DNA from: an uncultured Acidimicrobiia bacterium
Lineage (GTDB): Bacteria > Actinomycetota > Acidimicrobiia > Spongiisociales > JAENVV01
Reading direction: 5' to 3'
Assembly (NCBI GenBank): GCA_963847455.1
Contig: CAWKAG010000058.1
Span: 5,644 to 69,643 of the forward strand
Length of the DNA stretch: 64,000 nucleotides
The notes beneath the pieces are model-generated. The model made no database searches, was not told where the DNA came from, and saw only the letters and a list, made by a program, of their open reading frames with translations. Of this stretch, positions 24,578 through 34,069 are shown piece by piece. Made by a program: the position numbers and the translations under genes. Each line of letters starts with the position of its first letter. Within the stretch, counting starts at the first letter, position 1.

Positions 24578-27500
24578 CTACTTCTTCTTGCCCGAGTGGA
24601 TCTTGATGGAGCCACCGCCCAGTTCGGTGGTTCCCTCATCACCGGACGGGTCGGCTCCCAAACCGTTGTCGTAGAGCACGAATTTCGGCCCGTTTCCGGA
24701 CTGCCAGATCTCGATTCGGAAGGTGTCCTTGTCGAAGTTGTCGTTCGGGTTGACGTCCGCATCCATCGCAGTGAGACGGAACTGAAATACACCCTCGTAG
24801 CCTTCCACAACACCAAGTCCCTTGTACTGAGCCTTCTTGCCGGAGATGACCATCCACTCATATGACGTCGACTCGAAGTCGAGGTCGCCGGCTTTCAGTT
24901 CGAACGACGTGTTCCCGGTTGGGACCGACGAGCCCTTCTTGTACTTGGACACGAACCCGAAGTGCGCCTTGCCCACGATCGCGGGATCCTCGTTGTCGCC
25001 CGGCGTGTACGCCCCGATCGGTGAGTTGAACCAGCCTCCACCGGTTACGAAGCCTTCGGCCGGGTCGTAGACGACGATGTAGCGAAGGACCTCGGTTTGG
25101 ACGTAACCCCCTATCCCGTGGGTCACGCGGACTGATACGGGGTAGACACCCGTTGAGCCATAAAGGAAGGTCGCTTCGGTTACTTCATCGTCACCACTCG
25201 TCGAGGAGGTCGACGTAACCGGAAGGTCACCGAACAGGCCATCACCATCAAAATCCCACTCAACCGAGTGCGGGCCACCTGTATCCGAATACGTAGCCGT
25301 GAAGGTGACGGTCGTATCGACCGGTACGATCGACTGGTCGGCCGTCAGCGTCATTGGTCCCTCAGGAACGACCTCGTATGGGACGAGTGTGACTGTCGTG
25401 TTGCCAGCCTTGTCGGTGGCCGTCACCTGGGCTACATGAAGCCCGACAGAGTCGGTCGGCAGTGGCGCCCCATTTCCAACGGTGCCCTTGCACTTGGCGA
25501 TCCCTGTTCCACCGGTGTCGGCGCAGAAATACTGAAGCGGTACCACCGAATTGAGTTCGAGTTTGACGCCTGGGGCGATTGGATTCTCAACAGAGACTGT
25601 CGGCGCCATTGAGTCCACCACGACCGTCTTGGTTGTCAGCGACGCCGACGGGATCGTCGGTTGGGCCCGAACGGTGTGGGTGCCGTCCGCCAATTCGAAC
25701 GGACCGGTGTACCCGCTGAACGGACCAGAGTCGATCGAGTATTCGAGGGCCGCACCTGGTGCGTTGGCGGGGCCGGCTAGAGCGACTTGCGCCGGAGATT
25801 TGTAGATGCCGTTGTTGCCAAGGACTCCGCTTACCTGGATTGTGGGAGGCCCAGGAGGCAAGACCTGGTGCATTTCGGCCTTGTCGGTCGATACGACAAC
25901 CTGCCCATCTCCGCCCAACACCTGGACGAAGAAGTCGACGTTCTCGGCGGCGGTCAAACCGGACACGTTGCCGGTCCACGGACCACTGGTCGACCCGAGC
26001 TCAAGCTTCGTCCAGGCACCCGTGGTTCCAGCCTGCTTATACAGGACAACCACCCGCAAAACGCCGGAATCATCTTCGGCTTCGACTTCGAAGTTCACCT
26101 GTCCGGCGGTGATTTCGACGGCCGACACCCGACTAATCGTGGGTGGCGTGACATCGGCCACGGAATCTGGAACGTAGTAGACCGTGAGGTCCATCGCATC
26201 CCAGCGTTGTTGAGTGCTGGTGCTCGGGAAATACCGGCCTCTTGCCAATAGCAACTGATCAACAGTTCCTCCCGGGTTCTCGAAGCTCGTGATCGCCTGC
26301 AAAGCGTTCGGGAAAGCACCGGTGGTCTCGGTCTCGGGTTCGGCCAATTCGTTGTAGAGAATCGGGCGTGCATAGAGCACATCAAAGTTGGGGAGATCCG
26401 AAGACGTACCGCCTTCGATGATTGCCCCCGCTGCCCGCAAACTAGCGGTTGTGGGCGTGACGTTGATGAGCTCGAGCGGCTGAACCGGGCGGAACGGAAC
26501 CGCCAGGACATCATCTGCGACCAGGTAGTCACCGTCGGTCGCTGCGATCTGAGTGATGGCGGCCGAAGCGCTCACAGCTGCCGACTCGAGCCCGGTTCCG
26601 TCGGGAGCCGTTGAGACTGTCGGATTCACTGGTGCGCTGATCAGACTCTCATGGAGTCGGTAGAACGGCAAGCCGTACAACGTCGCTTCCATCTGCGACT
26701 TGTCGTGATACGGGCTCCACTTGGGCGTCTTGCCGGCCATCGTCTGCTGAGCCGCTACGAAGGCCTCGCCAACCGTGTTACTTGTTTCGATCTTCTGAGC
26801 GAAGAGCGACATCAGCTCCTCCGAGTACGCCTCGAAGTCGCTGTCACCGTATCCAAAGCCGGTATTGCCGACGAACACGGCTTCACGCAGCAGCAGCTCT
26901 TGAGCCCACTCAGTTACCGGGTCGCCCGCCGCCAAATACGAGTCGGGAGCGTTCGTCCCAGCATGGCAGCCCATCGAGAAGATGATCTTCCCTTCATAGG
27001 CGCCTGACGACGGCGGCTGAAGGTCGGCCAGTTGATAGAGGTTCGTGAACGTGTTGGTCAGGTTGCCGGCGGCTGGCAAAGCGGCCGTGTGATCGAAGTG
27101 AGCGTTGGCGTTGACGATCGCCGATGGAGAGTCCATCGCACCCTTCAGCACAAGCTTGTCCCAGGTTTCGCTGACGGTCGAGGTGACTGCGAATCCCTGG
27201 CTCGTGAGCGAAGCTGCGATCGTTGCCGACGAGTCCGAAAGGAAGTCGTAGCCGAGTACCTGTGCTGCTGGGGCAGGATCCGTGGTCGAGACGACGGTTT
27301 CCAGTTCGCCATTCGAAGCCACAAACTGTGCCAATGACGCCAGGATTTCCGCAGGCTGATCGACCAGGCGCCCGGTGGGCAGTTGCGGGATGAACACTTC
27401 GCGGTCGCCTTGCGGCACGTATAGCGGGTTCGGGTCCGAGTACGGAGCGTCGGTGAGAACCGTGCCGTCGCCAAGCGCTGCCACGAGCGGGTTGTTGCCG

Positions 27501-33801: not shown

Positions 33802-34069
33802 TCAAGGTGAGGCCGTCACCAATTGTGATTACCTCGAGGTAGGTGCCGGGAGCGACACTGATGGTGTCCCCCGTGGACGCAGCGTCGATTGCTGCCTGAA
33901 TGGTGCAATACGGTGCCCCTTCAGAATCGCTGCAACCCTCGTCCGCTTGATCCACCTGCAAGACGGCGGCGCGAGCGATTTCGGGCGGTGGGGCGGCCAG
34001 GAGAGTTGCCACCATGAGAAAAACGAGTAGTACCGAATGGACGCGCGTCCAAATTGCCCGATCAGCCAT
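33491..34069 (-). CDS. Giant-gene N-terminal fragment (signal peptide + first beta-helix turn); only about 33785-34069 appears genuine
   Basis: MADRAIWTRVHSVLLVFLMVATLLAAPPPEIARAAV signal sequence, then CTIQAAIDAASTGDTISVAPGTYLEVITIGDGLTLIGTGA. After about 33785 the frame becomes Arg-rich nonsense, while the +1 frame continues SPSSVVVDAQGLDRAVTLTAGDATFENLTITGG. AAGGGG RBS 8 nt upstream of the ATG. Confidence 0.65.
   Translation of the reverse strand: MADRAIWTRVHSVLLVFLMVATLLAAPPPEIARAAVLQVDQADEGCSDSEGAPYCTIQAAIDAASTGDTISVAPGTYLEVITIGDGLTLIGTGALAVQRGGRCTRTRPRRDPYRRRRHLREPHHYRRVEYQPGWRHSRGWRRTRRYPHQCHCRRQRSSRRRRGYLDRFWEHPDHRQLHAFQQRCTWLGRGHL

Follow-up and report, generated by a model that had tools for sequence, protein, structure and literature searches.

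A 64-kilobase (kb) stretch of DNA from an uncultured Acidimicrobiia bacterium, called the window here and used at its full length for all positions, carries on its minus strand a giant gene that is broken into six open reading frames (ORFs). An original prediction, made from the sequence alone, had joined these six ORFs into one secreted mosaic gene of about 9.5 kb, and each of them was recovered at its position. Their stop-to-stop frames (34081-33494, 33801-30994, 31214-31011, 31366-30512, 30896-30237 and 30463-24581) overlap end to end, and reading through them takes five changes of frame. With each switch placed where recognisable sequence moves from one frame into the next, the six ORFs yield a repaired product of 3,166 amino acids (aa). 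The start codon is preceded, at a distance of 6-13 nucleotides (nt), by GAAGGGGA. We conclude, with near certainty, that the six fragments are one gene whose product belongs to a family of giant extracellular proteins. The domains follow one another in the order originally predicted, and the features of the gene and of its convergent neighbor are as follows.

24578..34069, minus strand: the whole gene, with its ATG at 34069, its stop codon at 24578-24580 and a repaired product of 3,166 aa.
33968..34069, minus strand: putative Sec-type signal peptide, residues 1-34 (MADRAIWTRVHSVLLVFLMVATLLAAPPPEIARA, next residue A), read from the sequence and a hydropathy scan.
33788..33790, minus strand: frame shift 1 (+1), in GGGCGCGCTCG; the alignment with the relative P0036 crosses the site.
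31396..33922, minus strand: right-handed beta-helix of PMP-type GGxGI turns, residues 50-892, from hidden Markov models (HMMs) and a motif count.
32833..33354, minus strand: insert of about 174 aa in the beta-helix, residues 240-413, from the alignment with locus L108 and null searches.
31300..31392, minus strand: N-terminal half of a choice-of-anchor Q domain, LGNYGGPTETHALEPSSPA, NF041518 profile positions 1-31, 29.7 bits (cut-off 25).
30591..31290, minus strand: L-type (legume) lectin, Lectin_legB (PF00139), 99.9 bits against a gathering score of 26.3.
31103..31108, minus strand: frame shift 2 (+1), in a variable lectin loop.
31047..31051, minus strand: frame shift 3 (+1), in a conserved IAPSP/T.LG motif, adjoining a run of five C.
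30830..30845, minus strand: frame shift 4 (-1), in GGCCGGTTTGG.
30534..30614, minus strand: C-terminal half of the choice-of-anchor Q domain, TDQRGEPRP..CDSGAFE, NF041518 profile positions 32-58, 40.6 bits.
30333..30337, minus strand: frame shift 5 (+1), in CTTGGCCGAC, directly past the first QLGAI array.
29168..30401, minus strand: pentapeptide (QLGAI) region, residues 1225-1637, with 11 arrays, 36 units, linkers and cysteine modules.
27956..28426, minus strand: PPC-like beta-sandwich with an internal insert of about 53 aa, a tentative assignment (PF04151, 14.8 bits, E 0.056).
26144..27946, minus strand: predicted gingipain-like (clan CD, C25-type) cysteine peptidase followed by a beta-sandwich, from fold and homologues.
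27098-27100, minus strand: candidate catalytic His (NAHFDH), His283 of the module and His2327 of the repaired protein.
26966-26968, minus strand: candidate catalytic Cys (MGCHAG), Cys327 of the module and Cys2371 of the repaired protein.
25109..26143, minus strand: Ig-like region (OmpL47-type/Big-like) with one PKD domain; OmpL47 is sub-threshold at 31.3 bits against 40.
25109-25351, minus strand: PKD domain (PF00801), 29.4 bits against a cut-off of 23.5.
24581..25081, minus strand: C-terminal beta-rich domain ending in GGGSIKIHSGKKK; post_COAP_1 reaches 17.9 bits against 40.
20813..24502, plus strand: a protein with two cyclase domains, an AAA_16 NTPase and TPR repeats, convergent to the giant gene and 75 nt away.

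The unity of the gene is evident from domains that the fragments divide. On any single fragment the Lectin_legB profile scores at most 30.5 bits and is covered only in parts; on the repaired segment it matches over positions 6-245 of 250, crossing three junctions. Similarly, the two halves of the choice-of-anchor Q domain were found in two different fragments. An exhaustive HMMER protein search identified P0035, a protein of 2,979 aa encoded by one ORF on the JGI metagenome contig L107, which aligns with repaired residues 725-3166 at 60.7% identity in a single BLASTP segment covering four junctions. The first junction is crossed by one segment in which P0036, the product of locus L109, aligns with residues 57-242. 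A tblastn comparison of P0035 with the window gave a colinear chain of matches in frames -2, -3, -1, -3 and -1, and the orthologous loci L107, L108 and L109 keep a single frame through the four junction sites that they cover. In the more distant relatives L016, L051, L072 and L104, one uninterrupted frame of more than 2,000 aa encodes the domains in the same order. In L107, furthermore, the orthologue of the cyclase/TPR neighbor (74.7% identity) is convergent to the P0035 gene, 85 nt downstream. Two checks proposed with the original prediction, an HMM search of the repaired translation and a search for a syntenic intact orthologue, have thus been answered, the first by the lectin becoming full-length across the junctions and the second by P0035 with its conserved convergent neighbor. 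Other searches yielded less: a word-indexed protein search returned one protein only for the array region and nothing useful for the lectin region, and a metagenome scan for close relatives returned none.

That the fragments might be independent genes, or that the breaks might be programmed by ribosomal frameshifting or phase variation, is barely credible and was rejected. The 1,955-aa ORF has an ATG of its own at 30445, but the first 42 residues past it are out-of-frame junk over a QLGAI array. A run of five C adjoins one of the breaks, yet neither a slippery heptamer nor a long homopolymer occurs at any of the five sites. Against independent genes there stand, in addition, the domains cut mid-fold at the fragment ends and the intact relatives in which the same domains occupy one ORF.

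Four of the five switches are of the +1 type (one base extra or two missing) and one is of the -1 type, the latter likely caused by one lost C or G, and all five sit in short G/C-rich runs. No in-frame stop or nonsense codon was found across the 9.5 kb of the giant gene; all five breaks are confined to its first 3.7 kb, and the final 5.9 kb is unbroken. Codon usage was mapped along the whole window and the result checked with Pfam; this revealed two further split genes, both within the next 5.3 kb.

35838..36978, minus strand: MFS transporter gene with one frame shift near 36470, from the codon-usage map and Pfam.
39187..40349, plus strand: second ABC-2 permease gene with one frame shift near 39340, from the codon-usage map and Pfam.

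The MFS_1 profile matches the MFS gene in two frames, over positions 4-154 in one and 160-346 in the other, and the repaired product matches in one stretch at 55 bits; the repaired permease matches ABC2_membrane_3 over positions 1-346 of 347 at 113 bits. The count for 30.3-39.4 kb is therefore at least seven single-base frame shifts, spread over three unrelated genes, and none was detected in the remaining ~55 kb of the window. We consider it likely that the five single-base breaks of the giant gene are errors in a poorly resolved stretch of the assembly at about 30.3-39.4 kb, because neighboring genes are shifted as well, because only indels are seen, and because L107, L108 and L109 read through the junctions. 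A precedent exists within the family: L001, a raw contig from ENA, and L051, from a metagenome-assembled genome (MAG), are 95.4% identical, but their alignment over 5.4 kb opens 30 gaps; L001 reads in seven frame segments where the L051 copy is one open frame, which indicates that assembly noise can fragment genes of this kind.

The frame shifts may instead be real, in which case the giant, MFS and ABC-2 genes would be recent pseudogenes in a decaying stretch and no full-length protein would be made; we regard this as possible but rather unlikely. Several observations speak for decay and so against the artefact. Local chromosomal decay would likewise cluster several frame shifts, as the seven within 9 kb and three genes are clustered. 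A single frame switch also interrupts the gene in L108 (~3564-3603, repaired residue ~1391) and in L109 (~14812-14914, repaired residue ~2497), so such genes could truly decay often, and the neighborhood has been rearranged between relatives, L107 lacking the intact MFS gene found here at 34579-35784. However, the L108 and L109 sites differ from those of the window. A long-inactive gene would be expected to show substitutions, stops and larger deletions over its whole length, and the 9.5 kb hold single-base indels only, with no nonsense codon and no larger deletion. If breaks fell uniformly, the probability of all five lying in the first 3.7 kb would be (3.7/9.5)^5, or about 0.01. The conserved motifs of the lectin show no damage as far as the junctions, and orthologue identity is highest there, at 66-84% in the segments between breaks compared with a gene average of 61%. 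The fragmentation of L001 by assembly noise also counts against decay. Apart from the arrays, the 30-40 kb region has no internal DNA similarity, so repeats do not explain the cluster of errors; no sequence motif common to the seven sites was evident, and no composition change in 30.3-39.4 kb accounts for the cluster. The gene calls in this 9-kb stretch are not to be trusted, and six "hypothetical" fragments in the annotation collapse into one gene.

The protein begins with what appears, on reading by eye, to be a Sec-type signal peptide, the sole hydrophobic segment that a hydropathy scan detected. The beta-helix that follows scores 22-23 bits with Chlam_PMP (cut-off 20.6) and 20.7 bits with POMP_repeat, and its N-terminus is NosD-like. 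Its insert of about 174 aa had no meaningful family, NCBIfam or PDB match; a stretch aligned with L108 crosses it without large gaps. The N-terminal arrangement of P0035 differs from that of the window protein.

The original prediction had described two separate cap motifs, one before and one after the lectin. These are in fact a single choice-of-anchor Q domain (NF041518, 58 positions), since profile positions 1-31 and 32-58 match them in turn, both above the cut-off of 25 bits. The halves are separated by about 229 aa of lectin, between residues 924 and 1154. Three of the five frame shifts fall inside the lectin domain, and its VEFDT and DHVGID motifs are conserved, as judged by eye from the alignment with intact relatives. 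The lectin is likewise inserted into a choice-of-anchor Q domain in L016, L051, L072, L104 and P0035, and Lectin_legB matches at the equal position in L072, L104 and P0035. This placement of a lectin inside a choice-of-anchor Q domain is a previously undescribed arrangement. The head shares with PMP-like and choice-of-anchor Q proteins (NF041518; Chlamydia Pmp, PF02415) the GGxGI repeats and the DNGGPT...DQRG..R....CDIGAFE signature, but it has no autotransporter beta-barrel, its choice-of-anchor Q domain is split, and the helix is only the head of a longer protein. A chlamydial Pmp-type autotransporter was accordingly rejected: the repeats are present, and no autotransporter beta-barrel was found in the whole 3,166 aa. 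The likeness to legume lectins (PF00139) extends to a full-length match with VEFDT and DHVGIDI kept; here, in contrast, the domain is bacterial and sits inside another domain.

Downstream of the head lies the pentapeptide region, in which the 11 QLGAI arrays of the original prediction were confirmed with a count of 36 perfect units. The arrays are separated by linkers of 5 or 10 residues and by three two-cysteine modules of about 45 aa each (Cys 1377/1383, 1489/1495 and 1646/1653). The 36 units are encoded by 30 different 15-mers with a mean pairwise nucleotide identity of 0.81, and all differences are synonymous; in the L107 orthologue, 33 units are encoded by 25 distinct 15-mers, again with synonymous differences. 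This scrambling of synonymous sites without amino-acid change indicates strong purifying selection on each residue and makes recent homogenisation of the DNA unlikely. Since the motif, in addition, differs between proteins, the arrays show with unusual clarity how selection acts on each position of a short repeat. Among 14 proteins, 73 of 93 non-tandem LGAI-to-LGAI spacings of at most 40 aa are multiples of five (257 tandem spacings excluded). Since the spacings keep this five-residue register, linkers such as DLAGT and DPSGT behave as degenerate units.

Pfam and NCBIfam models matched nothing on the arrays, the array region of the window being without any family at E<=1, and a full-text literature search for the array motifs produced nothing relevant. 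A canonical pentapeptide-repeat protein was considered and rejected, no Pentapeptide HMM having matched. With pentapeptide-repeat proteins of the Rfr fold such as MfpA and Qnr the arrays have in common a strict five-residue periodicity, here held across linkers. If the unit is read in the register I-x-L-G-A, it also resembles Rfr repeats in its hydrophobic positions of inward type, two in number and two residues apart, with small residues behind them. The units of the window protein are, however, identical rather than degenerate, and its arrays are short (2-12 units) and broken by disulfide-type modules. Rfr proteins are small cytoplasmic DNA mimics, whereas the window family consists of extracellular giants with a putative array fold. 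Perfect short repeats with scrambled synonymous codons are also found in the Ser-Asp stalks of staphylococcal Clf/Sdr proteins, where they connect a ligand-binding head with the remainder of a surface protein. Those repeats are dipeptide, hydrophilic, glycosylated and LPXTG-anchored; the repeat of the window protein is a hydrophobic pentapeptide that lacks a sortase signal and precedes a protease.

The PPC (bacterial pre-peptidase C-terminal) domain of the original prediction fits the domain order, and its assignment is weak: with the insert removed, PF04151 scores 14.8 bits on the window protein, below the gathering score of 25.9, and one homologue matches PPC at E 1.2e-4. The C25-like peptidase module fared better. 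An AlphaFold model built with a 16-sequence alignment had a mean predicted local distance difference test (pLDDT) value of 84.2 and a predicted template-modelling (pTM) score of 0.89. When this model was compared with the PDB by Foldseek, the top five matches were RgpB and Kgp (E 1.1e-12 to 2.9e-10, probability 1.00), with template-modelling (TM) scores of 0.53-0.58 on the target; separase and caspases rank next. His283 and Cys327, the candidate dyad, are invariant in the 16 sequences and lie in the model directly past strands 277-280 and 320-324. The strict patterns N-x-H and G-C-H occur in 42 and 51, respectively, of 56 family modules, and when 8 of the 16 modules that fail one strict pattern were read by eye, all 8 had both motifs; the two motifs were thus seen in almost all of the 56. 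The Pfam family of gingipains, PF01364, matches at E<=0.01 in nine of 16 aligned homologues and lies above its cut-off in L088 (43.3 bits), L040 (27.5) and P0039 (26.1). Fold, dyad and homologues thus support a prediction that the module is a clan CD, C25-type cysteine peptidase-like domain, with its own Pfam score below the level for strict membership.

The gingipains RgpA, RgpB and Kgp of Porphyromonas gingivalis (MEROPS C25), represented among the top fold matches by RgpB (4ief, 1cvr) and Kgp (4rbm, 6i9a), have in common with the module a His/Cys dyad with each residue past a beta-strand, followed by an Ig-like beta-sandwich. In both, moreover, a large secreted chain combines a protease with domains that bind carbohydrate or act as adhesins. 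They differ in that identity is only about 10-14%, that the Pfam score is below cut-off, and that the window protein has no type IX secretion system (T9SS) domain and an actinobacterial host. Its adhesin part is N-terminal where that of gingipains is C-terminal, and its pentapeptide arrays, beta-helix and L-type lectin have no counterpart in gingipains.

Beyond the peptidase, the predicted PKD domain matches above its cut-off. The C-terminal beta-rich domain had been placed correctly and is conserved in P0035 and P0037; its family assignment is weakly supported, as no meaningful PDB or NCBIfam match was obtained and post_COAP_1 is sub-threshold.

The original prediction had presented the domain combination as unusual. 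It is present as listed, but it is not unique to the window, being a recurrent family architecture. The exhaustive protein search gave 262 representative clusters (50% identity) at E<=1e-3, and arrays and modules were counted in the best 150 of these 262. Tandem arrays of a single "house" pentapeptide occur in 134 of the 150, with more than 70 house motifs that fit [PQ]-[LVIFM]-[GSAR]-[ASG]-[IVF]; examples are PLGSI, PLGAI, PFGAI, PIGAV, PLSSI, PLRAV and QLSAI. The largest copy number belongs to P0039, with 111 units of PLGSI, and close orthologues of the window have Q-type units with occasional QLGSI or QLSAI variants. Among proteins of at least 1,500 aa, the gingipain-like module is present in 55 of 60 and lies downstream of the last repeat in 53 of 60. 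The conserved core of the family is therefore pentapeptide arrays followed by a gingipain-like module. The array part is about 400 aa long, with two-cysteine modules between the arrays, and the gingipain-like module comes with a PPC-like domain and Ig/PKD domains. The heads are variable: head and tail variants include beta-helix with lectin, PD40 with beta-helix, FG-GAP with RTX, and a Vgb-lyase-like propeller. A degenerate DNA pattern for three xLGAI units, run against 185,579 species genomes, picked out true family members in 16 of them, mostly MAGs of Acidimicrobiia, Gaiellaceae and other Actinomycetota. The family is already in public data as unnamed hypothetical proteins, and its single domains are of known kinds. 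What is undescribed is the presence of house-pentapeptide arrays and the near-constant company of a gingipain-like module; the arrays matched no Pfam or NCBIfam model, and the search found no paper describing them. This is a sizeable and widespread family, in which a variable binding head is joined to lineage-specific perfect pentapeptide arrays and a gingipain-type protease. Three proteins of 600-900 aa (P0005, P0010 and P0016) appear as "stand-alone" C25 proteins. They begin mid-domain, and the tails of P0010 and P0016 are out of frame, which makes all three look like fragments of giant genes.

The best overall explanation of the locus, and in our view a probable one, is a single giant Sec-secreted protein whose breaks are artefactual. 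That this protein is an adhesin-peptidase with the pentapeptide region as its structural stalk is a proposal we hold about evenly in the balance. The protein, of about 3,160 aa and from an Acidimicrobiia-like actinobacterium, would be secreted via Sec. Its head, the beta-helix with the inserted lectin, would bind glycans or surfaces, and the pentapeptide region with its two-cysteine modules would form a register-keeping repetitive fold, probably solenoid-like, that serves as the stalk. The gingipain-like domain would be an active protease acting on external substrates and/or on its own chain, self-processing being proposed because gingipain polyproteins process themselves.

A number of results count against this picture. 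PF01364 scores 15.9-16.1 bits on the window module (profile positions 34-370 of 374), below its cut-off of 23, and a sequence profile of the module found no match in the PDB. For the arrays, the best Pentapeptide HMM match in the wider family is Pentapeptide_4 in P0096, at 18.5 bits against a cut-off of 38; a single-sequence AlphaFold model, given no alignment, had a pLDDT of 35.6; and known solenoid repeats are less strict than QLGAI, in which all five residues are absolute in every unit. Nor is there a visible anchor. The original prediction had seen no LPXTG, PEP-CTERM or T9SS sorting signal, and a motif and hydropathy scan together with Pfam and NCBIfam agreed: only two internal L[PA]xT[GAS] strings occur, the T9SS C-terminal sorting domain had no Pfam or NCBIfam match, no hydrophobic 19-mer lies outside the signal peptide, and the protein ends in SIKIHSGKKK.

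The pairing of arrays and peptidase also suggests a different role, in which the gingipain-like domain takes the arrays of its own chain as substrates and the protein is a self-processing polyprotein. Cuts within or between units would free the head or copies of the pentapeptide, or the enzyme would carry out transpeptidation in the manner of the C25-like sortase PorU. We give this reading little credence, and regard as equally doubtful the claim that arrays and protease are an enzyme-substrate pair in cis, in which the protease, or a PorU-like transpeptidase, would recognise the lineage-specific pentapeptide of its own protein and cut or ligate at the arrays. It draws on the order of arrays and peptidase in 53 of the 60 long proteins, on a catalytic dyad conserved throughout the family, on the small residues always found at motif positions 3 and 4, and on the self-processing of gingipain polyproteins noted above. 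The motif differs from protein to protein, with purifying selection keeping it perfect, and lineage-specific perfect motifs of this kind fit co-evolution with one recognition partner. However, the linkers hold the five-residue register (73 of 93 spacings), which is needed by a fold and not by a string of cleavage sites; Pro starts most motifs, making the unit boundary a poor scissile bond; and the charged P1 residue used by gingipains, clostripain or caspases is absent. If the substrate role were nevertheless true, it would explain the perfect units, the lineage-specific motifs and the position of the arrays before the peptidase all at once. Dozens of identical pentapeptides would be released or the protein would be cross-linked to the envelope. 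This would amount to a tandem-core peptide factory in bacteria, or to a new mechanism of sorting in monoderm Actinomycetota.

Within the window, promoter and terminator scans gave results at or below chance, and no tRNA or Rfam elements were found. The convergent cyclase/NTPase/TPR gene of the original prediction was confirmed at its distance of 75 nt; its orthologue is also convergent in L107 and L108, and is upstream and divergent in L109. On the other side, window positions 34379-34559, upstream of the giant gene, are about 75-78% conserved in translation and overlap a small called gene of L107. An intact MFS paralogue at 34579-35784 adjoins the split MFS gene. At positions 260-619 of L107 the matches to window 34379-34559 and 35808-36000 abut, which is why the intact MFS gene is taken to be absent there; it was either inserted in the lineage of the window or deleted in that of L107. 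The two ABC-2 permeases are in tandem (38011-40349, plus strand), with a common frame and no stop between permease 1 and the ATG at 39187. Farther away, a plus-strand gene at 9157-11145 encodes a 662-aa membrane protein with a Wzy_C (O-antigen ligase-like) domain, adjoined by ORFs at 11149-11712 and 11499-13487 that had no family match. The minus strand at 42038-48193 encodes two GH32 glycoside hydrolases, two binding-protein-dependent permeases and a solute-binding protein, and looks like a fructan or sucrose utilisation locus.

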